Assembly (NCBI GenBank): GCA_036337035.1
Contig: JAYZFC010000002.1
Location: 208,138-272,137 of the forward strand
Direction of reading: 5' to 3'
Origin: Pseudomonadota bacterium
GTDB taxonomy: Bacteria > Pseudomonadota > Gammaproteobacteria > Steroidobacterales > Rariloculaceae
DNA: 64,000 bases
The notes below the pieces were generated by a model. It was not told the origin of the DNA and searched no databases. It was given only the letters and a program-made list of their open reading frames with translations. Below, one piece after another: positions 2,004 through 13,685 of the stretch (its first letter is position 1; every line of letters begins with the position of its first letter). The translations under genes and the position numbers were made by a program.

Positions 2004-2140
2004 TGAGGAGAACTAAGCATATTAATACCTATAATATGTCTATAGAATGGCCTATAACCTCTTCTATGGCGACTTCTTAGACTTAAGCAATAAAAGAATC
2101 ACTAGCATAGAAATATTCAGGATAAGCAGTTCTGGCAGCC

Positions 2141-2655
2141 TTAAAAAGTAAAGTCTAAATTATTTTTAAGTGATGTCGGGTCATCCACCTTGATAAAATG
2201 AATATTTAGCTCATCTGCACATTCCTGATCTGAAATCTGATCGCCAACAAAAATTTCATTTTCATGATTATCAGGAAAAAGTTCTCTATACTTCTTTATC
2301 ATACCTGTATTTGGTTTTCTGCATAAACAATTAGATTCTTTTATATGGGGACATACAATTGCCATAGATATAGGTAGGTGGGCTCTAATTATCTCAAGGT
2401 TTTCATTTATAAATTCTTTAGTTGTAAGTTTTCTGGATATATCAGGCTGATTTGATATTACAACTAAATTAAATTTTTTTTTTTGGAAAATATGAGAATA
2501 TCTTCTATGTCTTGTTTAATATTTACTTCATCTAAATTTCTTGGAGAAGATAACTTATTTGATCTATAAAATGCAGTATTTAATACGCCATCCTTATCTA
2601 GATATAAAGTATTTCTATATTGAGGTTTAGCAAAATGATAAATAATTGGTTCCAT
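2141..2655 (-). pseudogene. gmhB: HAD-IIIA phosphatase (GmhB-like heptose bisphosphate phosphatase) split by a frameshift in an A11 run
   Basis: N-terminal ORF (2464..2655) carries LYLDKDGVLN (the DxDG nucleophile motif). Reading the other frame straight through the run gives KKKFNLVVISNQPDISRKL...CPH...CLCRKPNTGMI...FVGDQISD, ending at 2141. Only the homopolymer at 2474..2484 breaks the frame. Confidence 0.7.
2474..2484 (-). repeat. A11 homopolymer (T11 on the plus strand) at the gmhB-like frameshift site
   Basis: Counted directly in the sequence. One extra A or two fewer As would fuse the two reading frames. Confidence 0.9.
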
Positions 2656-2658
2656 AGA

Positions 2659-3357
2659 TCAAATGACAAACCCAGACTGCTGAGCATCTTCATAGAACAT
2701 TTTTACGGTATCTAGTGAATAATCCTCAGGGCTTTTTCCAAATAACTGCATTTTTTTATAAAGTTGAGGTGACATGGTAATGATATCACAACCTGATTGC
2801 TCTGCAGTTACATAATCATATACCATTCTTGGGCTAGCCCACAAAACATTACAATTGCTATTATTATGAATATAGTCTGATATTTCCTTTACGAAAGGGC
2901 CTGCATTTATACCAATATCATATATTCTTCCTGCAAAAATTGACAAGATAGCCTCGGATTTTTCTAAAACAGGCAAAATATGTTTAATCTGTTCAATTGT
3001 AAAAATAGCTGTAATATTTAACTTAATATCACTTTCTGCTAAATATTTAATCGTATCTACAGTAGATTCGCCATTCGTAAAGGTTATCGGAATCTTAACA
3101 TAGACATTAGATGCTAATAAGGATAATTTTTCTGCTTGATCCACTAAATCAGCATGGCTATCTCCTATTACCTCAAGTGAAACCGGTAGATTATTTGATA
3201 GGCCTAGTACTCTTTTAGAGTGCTCTAGATAATTTTTCACTCCTAAATTTCTAAATAATGTTGGGTTGAATGTATATCCTTCTATCCCCTTATCTGATAA
3301 TTTTTGCATTTCATCTTCAGTAGGCCCATCTATATATATATTAATTTGATTTTTCAT
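2659..3357 (-). CDS. transaldolase family protein (short TalC/Fsa type)
   Basis: 232 aa. GYTFNPTLF and the Schiff-base lysine context YVKIPIT are typical of short transaldolases/fructose-6-P aldolases. Confidence 0.75.
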   Translation of the reverse strand: MKNQINIYIDGPTEDEMQKLSDKGIEGYTFNPTLFRNLGVKNYLEHSKRVLGLSNNLPVSLEVIGDSHADLVDQAEKLSLLASNVYVKIPITFTNGESTVDTIKYLAESDIKLNITAIFTIEQIKHILPVLEKSEAILSIFAGRIYDIGINAGPFVKEISDYIHNNSNCNVLWASPRMVYDYVTAEQSGCDIITMSPQLYKKMQLFGKSPEDYSLDTVKMFYEDAQQSGFVI

Positions 3358-3362
3358 AATAT

Positions 3363-3983
3363 CTATTCACCATTTTTATCTAAATCTTCGATACAAAAAC
3401 ATATTGCATGAAGTATTGCTATGTGGGCTTCTTGAATGTTAGAAGTTTCGTTTGATTTCACTGTAATAGATAAATCTGAAAAATCTTTAAGAATTCCCCC
3501 GCCTTTACCAGCTATTGTAAATATTTTAAGGCCAAGTTCTCTTGCCTTTTCAGCAGCATATACAAGGTTCATTGATGCGCCATTTTCTCTATTTCCCCCT
3601 CCTGTGGTGATTAAAAAAAGAATATCACCTTTATTTCCTAAGGCCTCTACCTGTCTTGTAAAATAGGAAGTAAAATCAAAATCATTAGCCCATGCTGTAA
3701 TGGCTGATGCATTGTTACTTAGTGAAACGGCTGCTAGTGCAGATCGATCTCTACCCTTAAATGTACATAATAGCTCTCCCGCAAAATGCTCAGCATCAGC
3801 ACAAGAACCTCCATTGCCTCCTATAAGAACTTTATTGCCATTTTTATTATTATTATAAATCTCTAGCGCCATGCTTTTAATCACATCGATTTCATTGCTA
3901 ACAGAAGAAATTACTTTTGCACTTTCTTGGAAGTAGCCTTTTAAAAAATTTTTGTTTATTTCACCCATAATAGTTTCTATCAC
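3363..3983 (-). CDS. gmhA: SIS-domain sedoheptulose-7-phosphate isomerase-like protein
   Basis: 206 aa. GGNGGSCADAEHFAGEL closely matches the GmhA signature GNGGSAADAQHFAAEL. Confidence 0.75.
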   Translation of the reverse strand: MIETIMGEINKNFLKGYFQESAKVISSVSNEIDVIKSMALEIYNNNKNGNKVLIGGNGGSCADAEHFAGELLCTFKGRDRSALAAVSLSNNASAITAWANDFDFTSYFTRQVEALGNKGDILFLITTGGGNRENGASMNLVYAAEKARELGLKIFTIAGKGGGILKDFSDLSITVKSNETSNIQEAHIAILHAICFCIEDLDKNGE

Positions 3984-4004
3984 ACTCCAAAAATAATTAC
4001 CAAA

Positions 4005-4832
4005 TTAAATACTTCTACCACCATCCATAATTATAGACTGTCCCGTCATATATGAGCTTGAGTTAGAAGCTAAAAATACAATTGCATCCTCGTATTCATT
4101 CTCATTGGCCCATCTACCTAATAAGGTCCTCTTTTTGACATTTTCAACTAAGTGTTTAGGCTGATTATTGAATACTCCACCAGGCAAAATAGCATTCACT
4201 CGAACATTTTTATATCCCCAATACTCTGCAAGATACCTAGTCATACCAATTAGAGCAGTCTTAACTACTGAGTATCCCAATGGCTTATAGGACTCTATAT
4301 CTTCAAAACTTTCTGTTGGTGAATAAACTCTCTGGTCTGGAGATCTTATTGCCAAATCAGAAGAAATATTAATAATAACTCCATAATTCCTTTCAGCCAT
4401 TCTTGAACCAAAAACTCTTGAGCAAATAAAGGTCCCTGTTATACCAACATCAATTTCCTTATTCCATTCATCTAAATCATAATCTTCAAGTCTTCCTGAA
4501 GGGCCTGCATTAAGATTTTTCATTTCTGGGTTTATTGAAGCATTGTTTATTAATATATCGACTTTCTCGCTATCATTATCTAGATTAATAGCTAACTTCT
4601 CTACAGATTCAAGACTCGTTATATCACAGATAACCGATTCAAAGATTGCCGACGGATTTTCTTTAACTAATTTATGTTCACAGCTATCTAATCCCTCTTT
4701 ATTAACATCCAATAAAAAGACCTTTGCTCCAGCTCGAGATAGAGCTATTGCATGTCTTGGACCGAGAAAACCGCCTGCACCTGTTATTAGTGCCGATTTT
4801 CCAGCTAGCGTATCTTTCTTAAAGTTTTGCAA
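4005..4832 (-). CDS. short-chain dehydrogenase/reductase (classical SDR)
   Basis: TGAGGFLG cofactor motif near the N-terminus and the YSVVK catalytic YxxxK motif. 275 aa. Confidence 0.8.
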   Translation of the reverse strand: MQNFKKDTLAGKSALITGAGGFLGPRHAIALSRAGAKVFLLDVNKEGLDSCEHKLVKENPSAIFESVICDITSLESVEKLAINLDNDSEKVDILINNASINPEMKNLNAGPSGRLEDYDLDEWNKEIDVGITGTFICSRVFGSRMAERNYGVIINISSDLAIRSPDQRVYSPTESFEDIESYKPLGYSVVKTALIGMTRYLAEYWGYKNVRVNAILPGGVFNNQPKHLVENVKKRTLLGRWANENEYEDAIVFLASNSSSYMTGQSIIMDGGRSI

Positions 4833-4858
4833 AGATATATTTTCTCTAAAAAAATAAT

Positions 4859-6049
4859 TTATTTCCTACCAATTCTATCAATTAAATTTGATAGAATCTC
4901 AGCTTTTTTTGATGCCACATCGATATTTCTATAGTTCGTTTTAAATAACATAAGCTTCTTTTGTAAATCTTCTGCATTAGGACATAAGCCATTATCACAG
5001 ATAGTATTACCAATTTTTTTCTTATAAAAAACATTTTCAAGATATGGGTTCATCCAAGCGCTATAAAAACCATCTCCCCCATCTGAAACATACGAATTAT
5101 AGAATTCTTTCCATGTAGTGGATTTTTGCTCCTCTCCCAGAAATTTAAATCCTGCAGTCAAATATGTATGGTTAGCCTCGCTTATTCTTTTCTGAGGTAT
5201 CATCCAACTGCAGCCTTCAACAGCTTTATGAAACATATCAGATATCATTATTCTCCTATCAACAAGTTCATCTATTCTTTCAAGTTGTGCAAGCCCTACA
5301 CAAGCTGTCAAAGGAGTCATCCTATAATTAAGACCTGAAGTATCATGCCTTTTATAAAGTGGATTTTGAAATTCTGAAGAAGCTAAACTCACTCTTCCAG
5401 CTGTTGCTGTTAAATTACCATAACCAATACCTGCATATTTTCTAACTCTGGTTGCTAGATCTTCATTTGAAGTAATAACCATACCGCCCTCACCTCCTGA
5501 AGTCATATGCTTTTTATTTTCAAAACTATAAACAGCCATATCAGCATGAGAACCTGCAAAACTATCTTTATACTTCCCCATGATCGTCTCAGCACTATCA
5601 TCAATTACAATAATATTTCTTTCTTTAGCAAACTCAATAATTGGTTCAATATCTAAAGGTAGTCCAAATAAAGATACTGGCATTATTACCCTAGTTTTTT
5701 CAGTTACTACAGGCTTAATACTATCTATATCAATATTCCATGTATTTGGATTAATATCTGCAAAAACAGGTGTCAAGTTACTCTCAACCGTAACAAGGGC
5801 ATTCATGATTACAGTCAATCCTGGTGATATAACCTCATCTCCTGGTTTTAAATCACATGCTTTTAACGCAGCATGCAATCCTGAGGTAGCAGAATTAACC
5901 GCAATTGCATATTTAGAACCAGAAACTGCCAAAAATTTTTCTTCAAATTTTTGAACCCAAGGATAATTTTTATTCTCTGGAGTTTCTGTATCTAAATACC
6001 TTTTAATATACTTAAGCTCATTACCTATATATTTTCCGAATTTGTCCAT
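4859..6049 (-). CDS. DegT/DnrJ/EryC1/StrS-family PLP-dependent sugar aminotransferase
   Basis: 396 aa. NSATSGLHAALKA and the FENKKHMTSGGEGGMV lysine region are typical of this family. Confidence 0.8.
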   Translation of the reverse strand: MDKFGKYIGNELKYIKRYLDTETPENKNYPWVQKFEEKFLAVSGSKYAIAVNSATSGLHAALKACDLKPGDEVISPGLTVIMNALVTVESNLTPVFADINPNTWNIDIDSIKPVVTEKTRVIMPVSLFGLPLDIEPIIEFAKERNIIVIDDSAETIMGKYKDSFAGSHADMAVYSFENKKHMTSGGEGGMVITSNEDLATRVRKYAGIGYGNLTATAGRVSLASSEFQNPLYKRHDTSGLNYRMTPLTACVGLAQLERIDELVDRRIMISDMFHKAVEGCSWMIPQKRISEANHTYLTAGFKFLGEEQKSTTWKEFYNSYVSDGGDGFYSAWMNPYLENVFYKKKIGNTICDNGLCPNAEDLQKKLMLFKTNYRNIDVASKKAEILSNLIDRIGRK

Positions 6050-6057
6050 AATCGATA

Positions 6058-6819
6058 CTATTTCACCCTCTTGTTAAAATCCGCCTGATTGTTTTTAAAT
6101 TCCTGATTCCTAAACCAATTTATTATAGAAAGATTATTATCCTTTATTACTTTCACAATAATAGATGAATCTTCTAAATATGATACTTTATTAAATAAGG
6201 ACTGATAAAAATTTAAGTCTTCTTCATAGTCAACTGTTAATCTAATATCTGCTAGAAACTCATGCTCACTTCTCGGATGAACTTTAGAATATCTTAAATC
6301 TGCTCTATCTAAAAAAACATCAATCACATCAGTATCTGTATTGTAATCTGAAGCAGTAGAAAATAGTTTTTTCATTCCATTTGCAGAGAATCCTAGAGTG
6401 ATAAGGCCTGGCAAAAGATCATCCGAGCCTTTTACGCTATCGTTATTATCAGATATTAGCTTATTTAAAGCATCTTTTGCTAATGAGAAGCTAAAAGTCG
6501 GATCATCTGCATCAATCAGCATTGCATAATCTAAACTATATTTTTCAAAACAAGAATGCCACCTATGGATTTTATTCAATAAGCTACCGCGATAAATATC
6601 TACATTATTCTTTTGTGCGATAATTGCAACTTCATCATCTGAACAATCCTCCGATGTTGCAACAATTACCCTAAATCCGATTTTTTTTGCTCGAGCTATC
6701 ACAAGCTCTATCATTGATAATTCTTGGAAAATCTTTTGGAAACATTTCTTTTCTAATCTTGTTGATAAAGCTCGAACAGTAACTATTGCTGCCAAATTAT
6801 TTTTTTTAGTATTGACCAT
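6058..6819 (-). CDS. SpsF/NeuA/KdsB-type cytidylyltransferase-like protein
   Basis: 253 aa. N-terminal AAIVTVRALSTRLEKKC...VIVATS...DIYRGS resembles the SpsF-like (CTP_transf_3) pattern ARxxSxRLPxK...ATS...RGS. Confidence 0.55.
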   Translation of the reverse strand: MVNTKKNNLAAIVTVRALSTRLEKKCFQKIFQELSMIELVIARAKKIGFRVIVATSEDCSDDEVAIIAQKNNVDIYRGSLLNKIHRWHSCFEKYSLDYAMLIDADDPTFSFSLAKDALNKLISDNNDSVKGSDDLLPGLITLGFSANGMKKLFSTASDYNTDTDVIDVFLDRADLRYSKVHPRSEHEFLADIRLTVDYEEDLNFYQSLFNKVSYLEDSSIIVKVIKDNNLSIINWFRNQEFKNNQADFNKRVK

Positions 6820-6832
6820 AAAAAAATACTCA

Positions 6833-7558
6833 CTACCTTAACATTCTCCAAAGCCTTATCTCATAGGCTATACCTTTTCCTTGAGATCTTAGAAGAAATA
6901 AAATTGCCTCAGATACCTCTTGTGTAGTCATCAATGAGTCTTTATCAATGTCATCTCTATCTTCCATCATGCTTGTAGATATGCCAGCTGGGGATATGGT
7001 ACCTACTCTAATGTTACTCTTCCTCACCTCTTCATCTAAAGCTCTGGAAAATCCTAGAAGAGCATGCTTAGTTGAGCTATATACTGTATGTCCTTTTGTG
7101 CCGCCACCATTATAAGAGCTTGAAGAACATATGTTGATGATACTACCCCATTTTCTTTTTTTTAGATTTTCGATAAAAAACTTACATATAAGCATAGGTG
7201 CAATAATATTTATATTGTAAGTTGAGAGAATTTCTTTCGCATTAAATTTCTCAAGATTTTTTAAAGAAAATACTGCTGCATTATTTATTATAATATCTGG
7301 GCAACTATAATTCTTCTCAATATATCGACAAGTATTCTCAACTTCCTCTGTGATAGATAAATCGCATGTCAAAACCTCTAATATATTTTTATTTGATTTT
7401 ATTTGCTTCTTAATATGATCTTTTTTATCAGAACCTGAAGTAATACCAATAATTCTAATACCTTGTTCTGATAAAGTTTCAGATATTGATAAGCCTAAGT
7501 CTCCAGTTATACCGGTAACTAAAGCTAGTTTTCCATTGAGTATTAGTTCTGTAGTCAA
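6833..7558 (-). CDS. short-chain dehydrogenase/reductase (classical SDR)
   Basis: LVTGITGDLG glycine-rich motif and YSSTK catalytic motif. 241 aa. Overlaps the upstream gene by 4 nt. Confidence 0.8.
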   Translation of the reverse strand: MTTELILNGKLALVTGITGDLGLSISETLSEQGIRIIGITSGSDKKDHIKKQIKSNKNILEVLTCDLSITEEVENTCRYIEKNYSCPDIIINNAAVFSLKNLEKFNAKEILSTYNINIIAPMLICKFFIENLKKRKWGSIINICSSSSYNGGGTKGHTVYSSTKHALLGFSRALDEEVRKSNIRVGTISPAGISTSMMEDRDDIDKDSLMTTQEVSEAILFLLRSQGKGIAYEIRLWRMLR

Positions 7559-8370
7559 AGCTTACTGTCTCTTATGAGTTTTTTTACAAACCTTAGATAT
7601 TGCTTAGCTGTTTCAATATCATTTTTCCCCCTGGCACCCTGTATAACAATATTACCAGTGAAATTAATTTTTTTTAATGACCTAAAACATGCCTTAAAAT
7701 CAACATCCCCTTCTCCAATCTTAACAGTTGTACCAAAAAGTTTAGTTCTATCTTTAATATGTAAACTATAAATCAGCTTATCAAGCTCTAAAATAGCCTT
7801 AGGCGTATCTTCACCTAATGAACAACTATTACCTAAATCAAAGTTAATCTTTAAATTATCACTACCAACTTTATTAATTAGACTTTTTATATTTAAAGTA
7901 GCTAATGATGTTTCAAGGGAAACCACAATATCATATTTTTTAGCATATTTGGTTATAGATTTAAGTGATCTTATCGCATCTTTTGCGTGATATTTATTTA
8001 AAATAGAACTATTGTCTTCGAGAGATAACGCCAACCTTGGTATGGCAAGTTCACTACAAGATCTAATTAATTCTTTTGCTACTTCAGTTGACTTTTTTGC
8101 TGTTTTACCAAAAATAGGATTGAACATAGAATAATCACAACTAATAGAAAATATTTCAACTTTTGTTGCTAGTTGAACCTCTTGAATTTCCTTCTTACCC
8201 TTTTTACTTAGTAAAGGATTTTTTAAATTATCGAAGATAAATTCTATTCCATCAAAACCTATTTTCTCAGCAATATAAAATTCATTCTTCCAATTATCTC
8301 TTGGGAAAGCCTGAATAAGGTTGTTTATTTTTTTTGAAAGCCGGCCTTGTACAATTCCTATTTTATTCAT
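7555..8370 (-). CDS. xylose-isomerase-like TIM-barrel sugar phosphate isomerase/epimerase
   Basis: 271 aa. GFDGIEF near the N-terminus and an alternating beta/alpha pattern with H/D/E residues (LHIKD) are typical of the AP_endonuc_2 family. Confidence 0.6.
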   Translation of the reverse strand: MNKIGIVQGRLSKKINNLIQAFPRDNWKNEFYIAEKIGFDGIEFIFDNLKNPLLSKKGKKEIQEVQLATKVEIFSISCDYSMFNPIFGKTAKKSTEVAKELIRSCSELAIPRLALSLEDNSSILNKYHAKDAIRSLKSITKYAKKYDIVVSLETSLATLNIKSLINKVGSDNLKINFDLGNSCSLGEDTPKAILELDKLIYSLHIKDRTKLFGTTVKIGEGDVDFKACFRSLKKINFTGNIVIQGARGKNDIETAKQYLRFVKKLIRDSKL

Positions 8371-8378
8371 TTTGACCT

Positions 8379-9386
8379 CTATTTTAAGACGTGGGCACCA
8401 TTGAATTCAAATTTAAAATCTAACACTTTATAACCATTATTAACTAATTTTTCTTTAAATAAATCTCTTTGTTTATCAACTACCATCATAAAAAAACCTC
8501 CTCCTCCTGCACCTATGATTTTTCCACCAAGAGCTCCTAATGATTTTATTTCTTCATACATACTATCTATATTTGTACTCGAAATAGAGCTAGAGATCGT
8601 TTTTTTGATCTTCCAATGATCATCCATTCCAATTCCAAATTCTCTTATTCTCCCTTCTGTTAATTCACTAACTGCTCTTATCCCGATAGATTTGATTTGA
8701 TCATAAGCATCAAGTACTAACTTATCATCTGACTTTAGTTTTTTCTTTTGATCTTCTATAATATTTTCAGATCTTCGTTCAATAGTGGTATAAATAAGAA
8801 AAATGCTCTCTTGAAGACTCTTGAGCTCTTTTTTACCAAGAACTAAAGGTTCACAAGCAACCTTTAGATCTTTACTAACTTTAATTATTTGTATTCCTCC
8901 TAGTGAACTAATATATTGATCTTGATATCCACCAGCCAATCCCAAAATCTCTCTTTCAACATGAAAAGCCTCTTCTGCTATTTCTATATTTGTCCTAGTC
9001 TGTCCCATTAAGTTTCTTATAGATTTAATAAATGCAACAATTAATGTACTGGAAGCTCCTAAACCTGTGAATGTTGGCATTGTTGAAAAAGTTGCTACCT
9101 GGAATGAATCATAAATTTTGAAATACTTTAATAGTTCTCTTATTATTTGATGTGAGACTTTATCGATAGAATTAACTCTTTCTGTCTCAGAGTATTGTAG
9201 AAATATATCTTTATCTAATGATCTTTTGGCAACCATAACGGTTATATACTCATCAATTGAAGCTGAAATCATAAATCCTTCATTTTTTGAAGCATAAAAA
9301 GGTAAGTCGGTCCCTCCTCCTCCTAATGAAATTCTGTATGGAGCGCTCGCTACTGAATGTTTTTTCTTAAACTTAAGCATAATCAA
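8379..9386 (-). CDS. GHMP-family sugar kinase, HddA/WcbL-like (heptose-7-phosphate kinase type)
   Basis: 335 aa. APYRISLGGGGTDLPFY is the N-terminal signature of HddA-type kinases. PTFTGLGASS is the GHMP ATP-binding motif. A C-terminal GAGGGGF is present. Confidence 0.7.
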   Translation of the reverse strand: MIMLKFKKKHSVASAPYRISLGGGGTDLPFYASKNEGFMISASIDEYITVMVAKRSLDKDIFLQYSETERVNSIDKVSHQIIRELLKYFKIYDSFQVATFSTMPTFTGLGASSTLIVAFIKSIRNLMGQTRTNIEIAEEAFHVEREILGLAGGYQDQYISSLGGIQIIKVSKDLKVACEPLVLGKKELKSLQESIFLIYTTIERRSENIIEDQKKKLKSDDKLVLDAYDQIKSIGIRAVSELTEGRIREFGIGMDDHWKIKKTISSSISSTNIDSMYEEIKSLGALGGKIIGAGGGGFFMMVVDKQRDLFKEKLVNNGYKVLDFKFEFNGAHVLK

Positions 9387-9394
9387 AAAAATGT

Positions 9395-10171
9395 CTATAA
9401 CAACTTTTCTACTTCACCTAATAGTGACTGAGAACCAGCAGCAATTATACCTTGTTGCTGTAATATATCTTTAGACTCTGTGTGTATTATTCTGCAATCT
9501 CCTCCGGCAGTAGATAAAAATATCTTAGCAGCAGCAATATCCCACGGTTTATCAGTAGGATTAACATAAACATCTATTCTGCCGGCAGCTACATAAGCTA
9601 ATTCCAGATTAGCTGATTCCAATATATGAATCCTCCTACAAATAGGAGGTGCAACTCTATCAAGAATAGATTCTAATGAATTTTTTTTATCATCAAAATT
9701 AGATTGATTAGTATTAAAGGACACAAGCGCCTCAGATAATTTCTTCTTATTATCTAATTTATACTTTTTATCATTTATATAAAAATCCTGCCCATTTGAA
9801 TAAAACATTTCATCCCTAGATGGATCAAAGACGCCGGCAGCTATAGCTTGATTTTCTTCGACTAAAGTTATTGAATGTGAATAAAATGGAATACTGTTAA
9901 CGAAATTTGTCGTTCCACATATTGGATCAATCACCCATGTGTAACGTGAATCTGGTTTTGAATAAAAATCACTCTCTTTTCCTTCCTCGCTAAAAATTCT
10001 ATCATTAGGAAATAAATTCTTTATATTCTCTAAAAATGCATCATGTGCAATTAAATCTGAATTAGACAAGAAACCCTTATCGTCCAAATAGATTGATCTA
10101 AAATCCTTAGCTTTTTCAACCTTAAGGGCAATTTTCCTCAAAATTGAAGGAATAGCAGAAACTCTATCCAT
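9395..10171 (-). CDS. inositol monophosphatase/FBPase-superfamily phosphatase
   Basis: 258 aa. WVIDPICGTTNF metal-binding motif plus the downstream WDIAA motif. Confidence 0.75.
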   Translation of the reverse strand: MDRVSAIPSILRKIALKVEKAKDFRSIYLDDKGFLSNSDLIAHDAFLENIKNLFPNDRIFSEEGKESDFYSKPDSRYTWVIDPICGTTNFVNSIPFYSHSITLVEENQAIAAGVFDPSRDEMFYSNGQDFYINDKKYKLDNKKKLSEALVSFNTNQSNFDDKKNSLESILDRVAPPICRRIHILESANLELAYVAAGRIDVYVNPTDKPWDIAAAKIFLSTAGGDCRIIHTESKDILQQQGIIAAGSQSLLGEVEKLL

Positions 10172-11245
10172 TTATACAAAATCTTTATAAGAAATAATAT
10201 GGTTTTTTTCTAAATCTAAAAGTGCAGTCCTTCCCTCAACTTCATAATATTTATTAGGCAGAATTCCTTCTTCTTTTTTTGTAACTACAGTTCTTAAGTT
10301 ACTAAAATTTAATTTATCACCTTTCTTTATCTCTTTAGAGGTAATTATTCTTTTAGATAGTACGCTATGTAATACACTTTCTGAATCTAAGAACACTTTA
10401 TTTGTATCTCCTAGAGCAATTTTTATTTTATTCGAATCAACTATTAGTTCTTTAAATTCATTAAACTCTAACGATGCATTCTGATCAGGTCCGCTCATTT
10501 TACGACTCAATGTAACATGCTTCTCGATAACTTCAGCACCCAAGGCAACCGCCCCTAAGGTACCAGTATCCCCTACTCCATGGCCTGAAAAACCAACATC
10601 TTGATTAAAAAGATTTTGTAAAATAGGAATACATCTTAGATTTTTATCTTCTAACTCGCTTGGGTAAGCTGATGTGCAATGAAGAAACATTAAAGGACAG
10701 CTAGCTTTATTAAAAATTTGCCATGTATTATTAATTTCAGCCCAATTACACATACCAACACTTGCTATAACTGGTATTTTTTTAGAGGCTACAAGCTCCA
10801 TAAACCAAAAATTATTTGTATCAATACTAGCTATCTTTATAACCTTTGCTTTATTTTTTACTAGAAAGTCTAAGCTATCTTCATCCCATGGGCTAATAAT
10901 ATAATCTAACCCTTGCTTTGTTGCATGATCCCACAACTCAAGATGTTGTTCATCACTTAACTCTAGCCTAAGGTCAGGATAATCCCATGTACCAAATGCT
11001 TTTGACTCATCAGGAAAATCATTTTCATTCTTGCTAAGGTAACCTGTTGGTTCCTCAATTTTAACTCCATCTAAGAGTAGATATTCTGGGTTTCTTTTTT
11101 GAAACTTAACTGCTTTAGCTCCAGCTTCTTTTGATTTGTCGATCATATTTATCGCTAGATCAAATAGACCATTATGATTAATTCCTATTTCTGCTATAAA
11201 ATATAGCTCATCCTCTTTAGCAAGGTATTGTTTCTTAAAGCTCAT
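10172..11245 (-). CDS. NeuB-family PEP-dependent ulosonic acid synthase with C-terminal SAF domain (divergent)
   Basis: 357 aa. FIAEIGINHNG...AGAKAVKFQ, HCTSAYP and GAEVIEKHVTL match the NeuB/PseI/LegI family. The usual SDHT motif reads SGHG, and there is an extra ~40-aa segment after the KFQ motif. Confidence 0.75.
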   Translation of the reverse strand: MSFKKQYLAKEDELYFIAEIGINHNGLFDLAINMIDKSKEAGAKAVKFQKRNPEYLLLDGVKIEEPTGYLSKNENDFPDESKAFGTWDYPDLRLELSDEQHLELWDHATKQGLDYIISPWDEDSLDFLVKNKAKVIKIASIDTNNFWFMELVASKKIPVIASVGMCNWAEINNTWQIFNKASCPLMFLHCTSAYPSELEDKNLRCIPILQNLFNQDVGFSGHGVGDTGTLGAVALGAEVIEKHVTLSRKMSGPDQNASLEFNEFKELIVDSNKIKIALGDTNKVFLDSESVLHSVLSKRIITSKEIKKGDKLNFSNLRTVVTKKEEGILPNKYYEVEGRTALLDLEKNHIISYKDFV

Positions 11246-11509
11246 GATTAATGTCCCAAAATATTGATTGTTTTATAGGATACCCTAATATTTTCGTTAG
11301 GGCTGCTCTTATATAACTAATTATAAAAAATAACACTTAAAAAATTAAATATTTTAACAAAATATAATTATATAATAACTTTTATCTTATTGATTTAGAG
11401 TTAAGATAGATTTTTTTGTTGGTAATTAAAGAGTAATTGCCATACATTTGTAATACAGCTAATGAATCGTAGATGTGGTAAAAAATTGAAGCCCTTATAA
11501 AAAAGGCTT

Positions 11510-11600
11510 GGAGAGATGGCTGAGTGGCTGAAAGCGCTCCCCTGCTAAGGGAGTATACATTAATAGTGTATCGAGGGTTCGAATCCCTCTCTCTCCGCCA
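11510..11600 (+). tRNA. tRNA-Ser (anticodon GCU), class II with long variable arm, encoded CCA
   Basis: Hand-folded. Acceptor GGAGAGA/TCTCTCC. D arm GCT-GAGTGGCTGAA-AGC. Anticodon arm CTCCC-CTGCTAA-GGGAG. 19-nt variable arm. T arm GAGGG-TTCGAAT-CCCTC. Discriminator G followed by CCA. Confidence 0.92.
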
Positions 11601-12623: not shown

Positions 12624-13685
12624 ATGAATAGGAGATTATTTTTAGAAAACGCAGTAAAAATATCAGCTGGAACATTGCTTTCAAATACATCATTAAATGC
12701 CTTCGCACAATCCAGAAAAGAAGTTTTATTGAATGGTAAAAAAGCAACTATTATTGATATTCATGCACATTGTCTTTTTCGAGAAGTCGCTCCTTTAATT
12801 ACAGGAACTAAACTAGGAAATGCCTCTCTTGATGACATTCTTGTATTAGGAACTCATAGAATTGATGATCTAGATGAAAGAGGAATCGATATTGCTGCAC
12901 TTAGCGTTAATCGATTTTGGTGGTATGAAGGCGACGACCTAGATCAGGCTAAAGCAATTGTAAGAATCAATGATGAAGGTGTGGCTAATTGGTGTAATAG
13001 ATACCCAGATAGATTTATAGGTCTTTCTTCGCCGGCTCTTCAGTTCCCAGAATTAGCTGCAGAACAGGTTGAATATGCTGTTAGAGAATTAGGTCATGTC
13101 GGAGTTTGCATAGGCGGTCATGCCCAAGGAGAGGTGCCCTCTTCCAAAAAATATGACCCTTTTTGGAGCAAAGTTCAAGAATTAGGAGTCCCTATTTTTA
13201 TGCATCCTGATGGCTCTAGGAATATCATCCAACCAGGTGCTTTAGGTGGGGCTGGTGGATTAGACAATGTTATTGGAAATCCCCTAGAAACAACACTTTT
13301 TCTGTCTAAAATAATTTTTGATGGTACTTTAGACCGCTTTCCTTCAGTTAAAGTAGTAGCAGCCCATGGAGGTGGTTATTTTCCTTCATACTTAGGTAGG
13401 TCTGAAGTTGCATGTATTAGAAATAATTCTAACTGCATCAATAAACGAAAACCAAGTGAATACCTAAAAGATCAGATTTTAATTGATACAATGATTTTTA
13501 ATGAAGATAGTCTTCGTCACCTAGTTAATGTTGCCGGAACTGGACAAATAGTTTACGGATCTGATATGCCATTTGCCTGGCCAGATACAATAGATTTGGT
13601 TGTTAATGCTAACTTCTTAAGTAATGAAGAAAAAAGAGCAATTCTTGGAGGAAATCTAATAAAATTACTTAACTTAAATATTTAA
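12624..13685 (+). CDS. amidohydrolase-2 (ACMSD-like) family metal hydrolase/decarboxylase with a Tat-like signal
   Basis: MNRRLFLEN...AFAQ resembles a twin-arginine leader. IIDIHAHC, FMHP, AAHGGG and GSDMPF match amidohydrolase_2 metal-ligand positions. Confidence 0.65.
   Translation: MNRRLFLENAVKISAGTLLSNTSLNAFAQSRKEVLLNGKKATIIDIHAHCLFREVAPLITGTKLGNASLDDILVLGTHRIDDLDERGIDIAALSVNRFWWYEGDDLDQAKAIVRINDEGVANWCNRYPDRFIGLSSPALQFPELAAEQVEYAVRELGHVGVCIGGHAQGEVPSSKKYDPFWSKVQELGVPIFMHPDGSRNIIQPGALGGAGGLDNVIGNPLETTLFLSKIIFDGTLDRFPSVKVVAAHGGGYFPSYLGRSEVACIRNNSNCINKRKPSEYLKDQILIDTMIFNEDSLRHLVNVAGTGQIVYGSDMPFAWPDTIDLVVNANFLSNEEKRAILGGNLIKLLNLNI

Follow-up and report, generated by a model that had tools for sequence, protein, structure and literature searches.

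The stretch of DNA analysed in this study (hereafter, the window) comprises 64,000 nucleotides of contig JAYZFC010000002.1 (assembly GCA_036337035.1, positions 208,138 to 272,137) from an uncultured marine gammaproteobacterium, whose genome is 1.22 Mb in size with 33% GC. It was found that 11 genes for a putative sugar pathway, including a gene for a NeuB-type synthase, are arrayed on the minus strand from position 11245 to position 2141. A tRNA-Ser(GCT) gene (11510-11600) lies upstream of this operon and purU (988-1869) lies downstream. The operon is nearly gapless, with intergenic junctions of -4 to +26 nt. An open reading frame (ORF) check confirmed the coordinates and the order of the genes, and no glycosyltransferase or exporter gene was detected inside the operon by Pfam. 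Thus, the gene list, the gene order, the placement between purU and tRNA-Ser, and the absence of a glycosyltransferase, all reported in a preliminary description of this DNA, were borne out.

All of the following genes are on the minus strand and are given in the order of transcription. The first gene (10172-11245) encodes the NeuB-type synthase (Pfam NeuB, PF03102; 211.5 bits against a cut-off of 22.1). The protein belongs to a NeuB-like subfamily bearing a characteristic loop and is called the loop-bearing NeuB below. With a 0-nt gap, its stop codon is followed by the gene for an IMPase-family (inositol monophosphatase-family) sugar-phosphate phosphatase (9395-10171; Inositol_P, 137.3 bits). 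Next come an HddA-like GHMP sugar kinase (8379-9386; GHMP_kinases_N and GHMP_kinases_C), a xylose-isomerase-like TIM-barrel protein, which is a putative epimerase or isomerase (7555-8370; AP_endonuc_2, 81 bits), and a classical short-chain dehydrogenase/reductase (SDR) (6833-7558; adh_short, 138 bits), whose gene overlaps the TIM-barrel gene by 4 nt. An SpsF-type cytidylyltransferase (6058-6819) shows a weak match to CTP_transf_3 (34.5 bits against a cut-off of 22.6; E 2.4e-8), and is followed by a DegT-family aminotransferase dependent on pyridoxal phosphate (PLP) (4859-6049; DegT, 229 bits) and by another SDR oxidoreductase, SDR2 (4005-4832; adh_short_C2, 143 bits). The last three genes encode a GmhA-like SIS isomerase (3363-3983; SIS_2), whose probable true start codon is the ATG at 3968, a dedicated transaldolase (2659-3357; TAL_FSA), and a GmhB-like HAD phosphatase (2141-2655). 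Of the 11 genes counted previously, 10 are intact, while the GmhB-like gene is split into two pieces (2464-2655 and 2141-2491) by a frameshift in a run of 11 A residues (A11; 2474-2484), the length of which differs between assemblies and relatives. A scan of the operon for promoters and terminators gave no better signal than shuffled sequence.

The nearest NCBIfam families of the operon proteins are NeuB/PseI, HddA, L-ribulose-5-phosphate 3-epimerase, KdsB, PseC/LegC, GmhA, and the staphylococcal-type transaldolase. No NDP-hexosamine (NDP, nucleoside diphosphate) 4,6-dehydratase, N-acetyltransferase, or hydrolase/2-epimerase was found among the 11 operon genes with Pfam and NCBIfam. No NTP_transferase domain was found among the operon proteins with Pfam, and the operon has neither an HddC-type transferase nor an LmbO-type guanylyltransferase. 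Thus, as noted earlier, the canonical partners of nonulosonic acid (NulO) synthesis and HddC are missing from this set.

The synthase is encoded by the sole NeuB gene of the window genome. It is not a member of the NeuB_NnaB equivalog (TIGR03569; 265.5 bits against a cut-off of 399.65) or of the PseI equivalog (TIGR03586; 217.7 bits against 340.25). In an alignment of 32 subfamily members, a near-invariant loop of about 35 residues, PTGYLSK..ND.P....FG.W.YPD.RLE, was found at residues 66-95. PseI has a shorter, unrelated stretch at this position, and ordinary NeuB homologues lack 13 of the loop residues. The AlphaFold2 model of the protein (pLDDT, the predicted local distance difference test, 93.2) consists of a TIM barrel and a C-terminal SAF/antifreeze-like domain, with template modelling (TM) scores of 0.80 to PseI (8h2c) and 0.79 to NeuB (1xuu). 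In this confident model, the loop follows strand 2 and precedes helix 2 of the barrel, on the face of the active site. The residues E19, K47, Q49, K137, S140, S162, S220, H222, E241, H243, and D254 are invariant in the 32 members, and I take them to be the metal- and phosphoenolpyruvate (PEP)-binding sites as in Neisseria meningitidis NeuB. As modelled, the enzyme retains the metal- and PEP-binding residues together with the NeuB/PseI fold. Judging from the aligned sequences, these proteins are a distinct subfamily of predicted NeuB-type PEP-dependent ulosonic acid synthases. An SGHG motif in place of SDHT was formerly noted in this synthase, but ordinary NeuB homologues read SGHE. SGHG was rejected as a diagnostic motif, since SGH is common to ordinary NeuB enzymes; what truly marks the subfamily is the loop at residues 66-95.

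Is the gene set found elsewhere? The window proteins were searched by tblastn against the contexts of six loop-bearing NeuB proteins, one locus from a genome collection (L008), and 80 metagenome loci. The metagenome loci had been retrieved with an alignment restricted to the loop. Fifteen loci, in which 6 kb or more flank the synthase gene on either side, were informative. As controls, 77 ordinary NeuB loci were used, of which 50 span 18 kb or more. In all 15 informative loci, the loop-bearing NeuB occurs together with the transaldolase, the GmhA-like isomerase, the HddA-like kinase, and CTP_transf_3. The transaldolase is present in 15/15 of these loci and in 0/50 long ordinary-NeuB loci (Fisher p = 5e-15; 0/77 over all controls), the HddA-like kinase in 15/15 and 2/50 (p = 7e-13), and the IMPase, by strict tblastn, in 10/15 and 0/50 (p = 2e-8); as the loci are phylogenetically non-independent, these p-values are indicative only. 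The TIM-barrel enzyme was found in 9/15 informative loci. SDR2 homologues (42-69% identity) were found in 11/15, and SDR2 is, by this gene context, a near-core putative partner of the isomerase. Since the TIM-barrel, SDR2, and GmhA-like genes also lie next to ordinary NeuB genes in about one-fifth to one-half of the controls, the loop-specific additions are the transaldolase, the kinase, and the IMPase-family phosphatase.

The loci fall into two clades. In clade A, which includes the window, the order is NeuB-IMPase-kinase plus SDR2-isomerase-transaldolase-HAD. In clade B, the order is CTP_transf_3-isomerase-TIM-SDR2-NeuB-kinase with a convergent transaldolase-SDR-IMPase (HisN-like) set. The gene right after the loop-bearing NeuB is the IMPase in 28/28 clade-A loci and the kinase in 28/32 clade-B loci. 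Two loci have a minimal core: the seven genes NeuB-IMPase-GHMP-SIS-transaldolase-HAD-CTP_transf_3 in L008 and the six genes CTP_transf_3-SIS-NeuB-GHMP-transaldolase-IMPase in L163. It was also considered that the IMPase and an HddC-type transferase might be mutually exclusive, and this was rejected because both are present in L154.

The module was found in marine metagenomes, single-cell genomes, and metagenome-assembled genomes (MAGs), and homologues of the synthase at 50-78% identity are abundant in marine metagenomes. The evidence for its taxonomic breadth comes from the metagenome loci and from a small number of named MAGs and single-cell genomes. In a scan of the genome collection with the full alignment of the subfamily, the matches listed were mostly ordinary NeuB genes; among them, L008 was the only true member, and two distant loop-bearing sequences were also present. 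The loop-bearing NeuB was found in 0/60 relatives of the window genome and in 0/400 genomes sampled across the phylum. The module is rare among species representatives. No copies of the module were found in viral contigs.

Several related arrangements were encountered at these loci. Short NeuB genes without the loop (L017, L021, L025, L047, L052, L055, and L075) lie beside the same block of TIM-barrel, SDR, SDR2, aminotransferase, and CTP_transf_3 genes in Opitutaceae, Mariprofundaceae, Roseburia, Chloroflexus, Azonexaceae, and Rhodospirillales MAGs. These blocks often include a GmhA-like gene, but they lack the transaldolase, the kinase, and the IMPase. In a marine single-cell genome (L094, 5572-9809), a 565-aa HMGL-like protein, a CTP_transf_3 protein, and an HAD phosphatase are encoded divergently from the module. 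HMGL-like proteins are of the pyruvate/oxo-acid aldolase type, and this set may be another route to an acid sugar activated with cytidine monophosphate (CMP) without a NeuB/KdsA synthase. The surroundings of the clade-B modules (L095 and the flanks of L164, L161, and L143) encode sulfotransferases, a carbamoyltransferase, radical SAM/SPASM enzymes, and PseB, which may point to heavily modified forms of the sugar and to coexistence with pseudaminic-acid genes.

Of the enzymes that may supply the precursor, the isomerase and the kinase most resemble heptose enzymes. The transaldolase scores 207.5 bits against TIGR02134 (transald_staph; cut-off 281.95). Compared with 3s0c, it conserves the Asp, Asn, Glu, Schiff-base Lys, Thr, and Phe residues as well as the Arg/Ser/Arg phosphate site, and it has the Phe where fructose-6-phosphate aldolases have Tyr. 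The isomerase scores 157.5 bits against gmhA (TIGR00441; cut-off 209.45), keeps the motifs GNGGS..DA.HFA.EL and IQE.H, and has Campylobacter jejuni GmhA (1tk9) as its top PDB match (2.4e-36). The kinase aligns over its full length with NCBIfam HddA (E 1e-52), while its score of 179.7 bits against a cut-off of 600 places it outside the HddA equivalog. Its top PDB matches, at about 1e-40, are the heptose kinases WcbL (4usk/4usm), 4n3o, and 3k85. It probably phosphorylates the anomeric position. It is the only HddA-like gene product of the window genome. The isomerase is an extra copy; a housekeeping GmhA is encoded on contig C8. A second, housekeeping transaldolase gene lies at C2:150423-151019, and GmhB-like genes lie elsewhere, on contigs C6 and C4. 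In L001, a marine single-cell genome, a full HldE/GmhB/GmhA set lies beside the module, yet the module keeps its own isomerase and phosphatase. Since separate housekeeping transaldolase, GmhA, and GmhB-like genes exist, and since the L001 module stands beside a complete set of this kind, the module copies are dedicated.

The GmhB-like HAD gene of the window deserves separate treatment. HAD motif I (DKDGV) is encoded within 2464-2655 and motifs II-IV within 2141-2491 in a different frame, and the two frames meet at A11. When one A is added to the run, a 171-aa HAD protein with all four HAD motifs results. HAD homologues are intact in L001, L002, and L004 (Pfam PNK3P). Among the related loci examined (L097-L102), the frame-breaking A11 was found in five independent assemblies in addition to the window, while one assembly (L100/ERZ842402) has A12 and an intact 171-aa gene. 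A same-genus relative, G001, has an in-frame A9 in a remnant of the operon (L187, about position 13079). By these comparisons, the run looks like a hypermutable, slippage-prone on/off tract rather than an assembly error. Since the common A11 allele breaks the HAD frame, slippage or a housekeeping GmhB would be required for that step.

The remaining enzymes were compared with known structures in a similar way. The top PDB matches of the IMPase-family protein are SuhB/IMPase at about 1e-23. The AlphaFold2 model of the cytidylyltransferase (pLDDT 93.5) fits best to an uncharacterised Leptospira cytidylyltransferase (6oew; TM 0.79-0.83). Further fold matches are KdsB, the CMP-Kdo (3-deoxy-D-manno-octulosonic acid) enzyme, and a CMP-Kdn (ketodeoxynonulosonic acid) synthetase (9t4z), both with TM about 0.6; IspD is likewise at about 0.6. 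CMP rather than CDP chemistry is predicted because NeuB is present. The closest named families of the TIM-barrel enzyme are L-ribulose-5-phosphate 3-epimerase and psicose 3-epimerase, with scores far under the cut-offs, and its PDB matches are MJ1311 (3wqo) and UlaE. The DegT protein scores 178.7 bits against PseC (cut-off 423.5) and retains the PLP lysine in an SFENKK motif. Its top PDB match is GDP-perosamine synthase (3bn1/3dr4; 5e-47), and the Kdo8N transaminase 5k8b matches at 3.5e-27. The aminotransferase varies among the loci; some have DegT, L001 has Aminotran_4, and L004 and L008 have none.

The preliminary description had left the destination of the product entirely open. It remains true that the operon has no transferase of its own, while the choice is narrowed by genes on contig C8 whose families adjoin the module elsewhere. 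C8, the contig with the lowest GC (0.314), carries a large O-antigen-type locus at about 86-121 kb, with genes for a WecA-like protein, Wzz, a PglK-like ABC flippase, GT2 glycosyltransferases, the CDP-glucose pathway, and a LIC12162-family transferase. This transferase (P0148; 586 residues) scores 410.9 bits against TIGR04331 (cut-off 225). In L008, a LIC12162-family transferase (P0149; 494.9 bits against the same cut-off of 225) directly follows the module, and similar genes lie near the module in L154, L160, L163, L164, and L177. The related TIM/SDR/aminotransferase cassette of L017, which has a loop-less NeuB, also ends in a LIC12162-family transferase gene, and PglK-like transporter genes flank clade-B modules. 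Among the window genome and its 60 relatives, the loop-bearing NeuB and the LIC12162-family transferase were each found once, both in the window genome, and the transferase is absent from nine relatives with ordinary NeuB genes. No sequence relative of this transferase was found in PDB. In a Herbaspirillum lipopolysaccharide island, a LIC12162-family gene lies next to neuABC (PMC6679464). From this gene context, it is likely that the product goes to an O-antigen-type surface glycan via the LIC12162-family transferase and the PglK-like flippase of C8.

The C8 locus also encodes a fused nucleotidyltransferase/threonine-phosphate-decarboxylase-like protein, a CDP-alcohol phosphatidyltransferase, an AMP-binding enzyme, an LA_1612-like protein, a FemAB-like protein, and a polysaccharide deacetylase. 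The predicted functions of these extra genes suggest decoration of the glycan with phospho-amino-alcohol or acyl groups. In L001, a gene with PF07388 (alpha-2,8-polysialyltransferase-like; 3298-4344) lies upstream of the module and is a candidate for a second type of transferase for the product.

Taken together, the leading explanation, with roughly even chances, is that the operon represents a conserved and as yet uncharacterised module making a CMP-activated 3-deoxy-2-ulosonic (sialic-acid-like) surface sugar from an aldose with at least seven carbons. Each step of the following scheme is drawn from homology and gene context. The dedicated transaldolase would supply a ketose phosphate, which might be sedoheptulose-7-phosphate or, if the enzyme resembles LmbR of lincosamide biosynthesis, octulose-8-phosphate. 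The GmhA-like isomerase would convert it into an aldose phosphate, and the HddA-like kinase would phosphorylate C1. The distal phosphate would then be removed by the GmhB-like HAD phosphatase, or by a housekeeping GmhB under the A11 allele, to leave a sugar 1-phosphate. In all known bacterial NulO routes, the aldose is first released from a precursor that is substituted at the anomeric position, and NeuB acts afterwards. Given this precedent and the position of the IMPase gene next to the loop-bearing NeuB, the IMPase is the obvious candidate to free the sugar 1-phosphate. The 1-phosphate would thus serve as a handle, the role played by NDP in known NulO pathways, and its hydrolysis by the IMPase would give the free aldose. 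The loop-bearing NeuB would condense this aldose with PEP into a C10 (or C11) ulosonic acid. At a stage that is not fixed, the two SDRs, the TIM-barrel enzyme, and DegT would oxidise, epimerise, and aminate the sugar. The SpsF-type cytidylyltransferase would produce the CMP-sugar, the LIC12162-family transferase of C8 would add the sugar to an undecaprenyl-linked glycan, and the PglK-like ABC transporter would flip the glycan.

By analogy with known routes, the product could be a C10 sugar if the precursor is a heptose, or a C11 sugar if the transaldolase is LmbR-like, and a C9 sugar could also result. The earlier proposal of PEP condensation onto a heptose to give an ulosonic acid of more than nine carbons is strengthened by the co-occurrence in 15/15 loci and by the housekeeping transaldolase and GmhA copies, whereas the carbon number may be 10, 11, or 9. 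A bolder version is that an LmbR-like transaldolase leads via octulose-8-phosphate and an (amino-)octose to a CMP-undec-2-ulosonic acid (C11) on abundant uncultured marine bacteria, with LIC12162 as a new "sialyl"-transferase; I regard this as a speculative and rather improbable version.

How does the operon compare with known systems? The GDP-D-glycero-alpha-D-manno-heptose pathway consists of GmhA, HddA, GmhB, and HddC. The operon encodes GmhA-, HddA-, and GmhB-like enzymes, whose best matches are heptose enzymes. Unlike that pathway, however, it lacks HddC, coexists with housekeeping heptose genes, and adds a transaldolase, an IMPase, a NeuB-type synthase, and a cytidylyltransferase; the GDP-heptose route itself has no transaldolase. 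The lincosamide route, which was overlooked in the preliminary description, is the only characterised pathway coupling a transaldolase to GmhA-, HddA-, and GmhB-type enzymes. In that route, LmbR produces octulose-8-phosphate from fructose-6-phosphate or sedoheptulose-7-phosphate and ribose-5-phosphate. The LmbN isomerase, the LmbP kinase, the LmbK phosphatase, and the LmbO guanylyltransferase then act, followed by the LmbL/M/Z/S dehydrogenase, epimerase, oxidoreductase, and aminotransferase (PMC5854111, PMC4351081). The operon shares the transaldolase, isomerase, kinase, and phosphatase, and 9 of its 11 genes have a functional counterpart when matched by enzyme type rather than by Lmb sequences. 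On the other hand, it has no LmbO-type transferase, it would end in PEP condensation and a cytidylyltransferase rather than thio-glycoside chemistry, and it stands in a Gram-negative surface-glycan context.

The pathways of known ulosonic acids share other parts of the operon. Like the NeuABC, Pse, and Leg pathways, the module has a NeuB-family synthase, DegT, and CTP_transf_3, and the aldose would be freed from an anomerically substituted precursor before condensation. Unlike them, it lacks an NDP-sugar 4,6-dehydratase, an N-acetyltransferase, and NeuC/PseG/LegG, and its loop is missing from ordinary NeuB. The Kdn and vertebrate sialic acid routes proceed through phosphorylated intermediates, as with BT1714/BT1713 of Bacteroides thetaiotaomicron and with the GNE kinase, NANS, NANP, and CMAS. 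The operon resembles them in the logic of a kinase, a NeuB-family synthase, an adjacent phosphatase, and a CMP-synthetase, and the CMP-Kdn synthetase 9t4z is among the fold matches. It differs in that its phosphatase is of the IMPase family and not HAD, its kinase is GHMP/HddA-like and not ROK, and its precursor supply is a transaldolase and a GmhA-like isomerase and not hexose or hexosamine. The CMP-Kdo pathway (KdsD, KdsA, KdsC, and KdsB) runs through the same order of steps, with an SIS isomerase, then PEP condensation, then a phosphatase, and at last a cytidylyltransferase, and Kdo8N tailoring by KdnA and KdnB gives a precedent for oxidation and transamination of an ulosonic acid, in line with the match of DegT to 5k8b. 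In contrast to the CMP-Kdo enzymes, the operon synthase is of the NeuB family and not KdsA/DAHPS, the isomerase is of the GmhA type without CBS domains, and the kinase and the transaldolase are extra. In the literature library that was searched, no paper was found on this gene set, on a heptose-derived ulosonic acid, or on a dec- or undec-2-ulosonic acid pathway. C10 CMP-ulosonic acids have been detected in Magnetospirillum and Methanococcus by mass spectrometry only, with no genes assigned (PMC8157484; bioRxiv 10.64898/2026.04.20.719630).

Several points weigh against a phosphate-handle route to a long-chain ulosonic acid. All NCBIfam scores of the operon proteins are below the equivalog cut-offs, and the operon enzymes may have specificities other than those that the family names imply. 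It looks wasteful to use a kinase and then two phosphatases only to end with a free sugar. With sedoheptulose-7-phosphate as the precursor, it is hard to see what the strictly conserved transaldolase would do. A frameshift breaks the HAD gene in the window and in 5/6 related assemblies; the GmhB-like HAD is present in clade A but in 0/7 clade-B loci, so the clade-B route needs a housekeeping GmhB. The cytidylyltransferase fold does not separate CMP-ulosonate synthetases from phosphate-using IspD-type enzymes, and the nearest solved relatives of DegT use NDP-sugars, while the module lacks an NDP-transferase. In addition, the Magnetospirillum C10 compounds are di-N-acetylated, a composition not expected from this operon, which encodes a single aminotransferase but lacks an acetyltransferase. 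What other pathway may account for the gene set? In an order of the Kdn-9-phosphate type, the loop-bearing NeuB would condense a heptose 7-phosphate or an octose 8-phosphate with PEP, the IMPase would then cleave off the terminal phosphate of the product, in the manner of BT1714/BT1713 or NANS/NANP, before CMP is added, and the kinase and HAD would belong to a side branch or to regulation; the product would still have at least 10 carbons. Such an order suits the contiguous NeuB and IMPase genes of clade A (28/28), abutting in the window, as well as the second CTP_transf_3-IMPase pair of L008 and the GmhA-like genes that lie beside ordinary NeuB without any kinase in 10/77 controls, and the loop, with its basic and aromatic residues, might provide a binding site for phosphate. 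However, it leaves the HddA-like kinase of all 15 loci without a role, and in clade B it is the kinase and not the phosphatase that follows NeuB (28/32). I consider this order, the main rival, rather doubtful.

A more conventional product is also conceivable. The SIS protein, the kinase, and the phosphatases may act on hexose phosphates, from fructose-6-phosphate to mannose-type sugars, and the synthase may make Kdn or an aminated Kdn-like C9 acid. In NulO loci, proteins with an SIS domain use fructose-6-phosphate, PtmF of C. jejuni being an example. All of the specificity assignments here lie under the equivalog cut-offs, and Kdn-type acids are common in environmental microbes (PMC8157484). 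However, the isomerase keeps the GmhA signature and best matches GmhA structures, the kinase best matches heptose kinases, and the divergent loop of the synthase argues for a non-standard substrate. Moreover, a dedicated transaldolase, present in 15/15 loci, would be pointless for hexose supply, and an ordinary C9 product seems unlikely. The operon may instead combine two pathways, a heptose-1-phosphate branch for NDP-heptose with a nucleotidyltransferase elsewhere, and a NeuB/cytidylyltransferase branch acting on a hexosamine made by O-antigen locus genes. The C8 locus does have nucleotidyltransferases, dehydratases, a PseC-like aminotransferase, and GNATs, and the operon kinase is the only HddA-like gene of the genome. 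Yet the C8 nucleotidyltransferase is a clear glucose-1-phosphate cytidylyltransferase (356 bits) and not HddC, and homologues of PseB/LegB, PseG/LegG, and NeuC were not found alongside the module in the window genome. The loop-bearing NeuB is also tied to the transaldolase, SIS, and kinase genes across very different genomes and glycan loci, including the six- and seven-gene modules, and a mixture of two pathways is distinctly unlikely. Finally, instead of a glycan building block, the product might be a soluble compound, for instance an aminocyclitol or an amino sugar of secondary metabolism. The IMPase, SDR, TIM-barrel, and DegT families occur in aminocyclitol pathways too, lincosamide biosynthesis shares the front-end enzymes, and the operon has no glycosyltransferase. 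This is highly improbable; there is no cyclase, nonribosomal peptide synthetase, or resistance gene, the module lies elsewhere inside loci with Wzz, Wzx, Wzy, and glycosyltransferases, and the pair of NeuB and a cytidylyltransferase is a hallmark of glycan donors. For the same reasons, the absence of a cyclase and a core of NeuB and cytidylyltransferase, the cyclitol-like product once offered as an alternative found no support.

The history of the operon can be traced in the same-genus relative G001. This genome keeps both flanks and the tRNA, with a deletion scar at L187 12703-13572 (G001:C12). The scar matches window positions 2097-2621 joined to 11081-11432, and the 8,459 bp between them are gone. 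Codons 1 to about 55 of the loop-bearing NeuB are fused in frame to the HAD gene from about codon 12 onward via a 5-nt microhomology, ATATT. G001 has lost the NeuB start codon, and it also lacks purU and the LIC12162-family transferase. The scar indicates that the operon was present in the common ancestor of both species and that it is dispensable. The idea of a recent island at tRNA-Ser was rejected, since the GC content of the operon (0.30-0.33) is the same as the mean of the genome (0.33) and a deletion scar is retained in the sister species. With regard to purU, four close relatives, one of them the same-genus genome, have no homologue at E <= 1e-30; thus, this neighbour of the operon is variable too.

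If the proposed ulosonic acid pathway is true, the sialic acid/Kdo family would gain C10 or C11 members, and NeuB enzymes would gain a new class of substrate. The phosphate handle would be an alternative to NDP-sugar intermediates, and the LIC12162 family would gain a function. The module could be a variant of CMP-ulosonic acid biosynthesis so far without description, and its product could be a new sugar class if the octose reading holds. With its core of six or seven genes, it is a concrete candidate gene set for the orphan CMP-ulosonic acid chemistry beyond C9. In ecological terms, the operon acts like a variable surface-glycan trait of streamlined marine bacteria: one species has the operon, its sister has deleted it, and a hypermutable A-run lies in one of its genes. 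Such variation is of the kind expected under pressure from phages and grazers.

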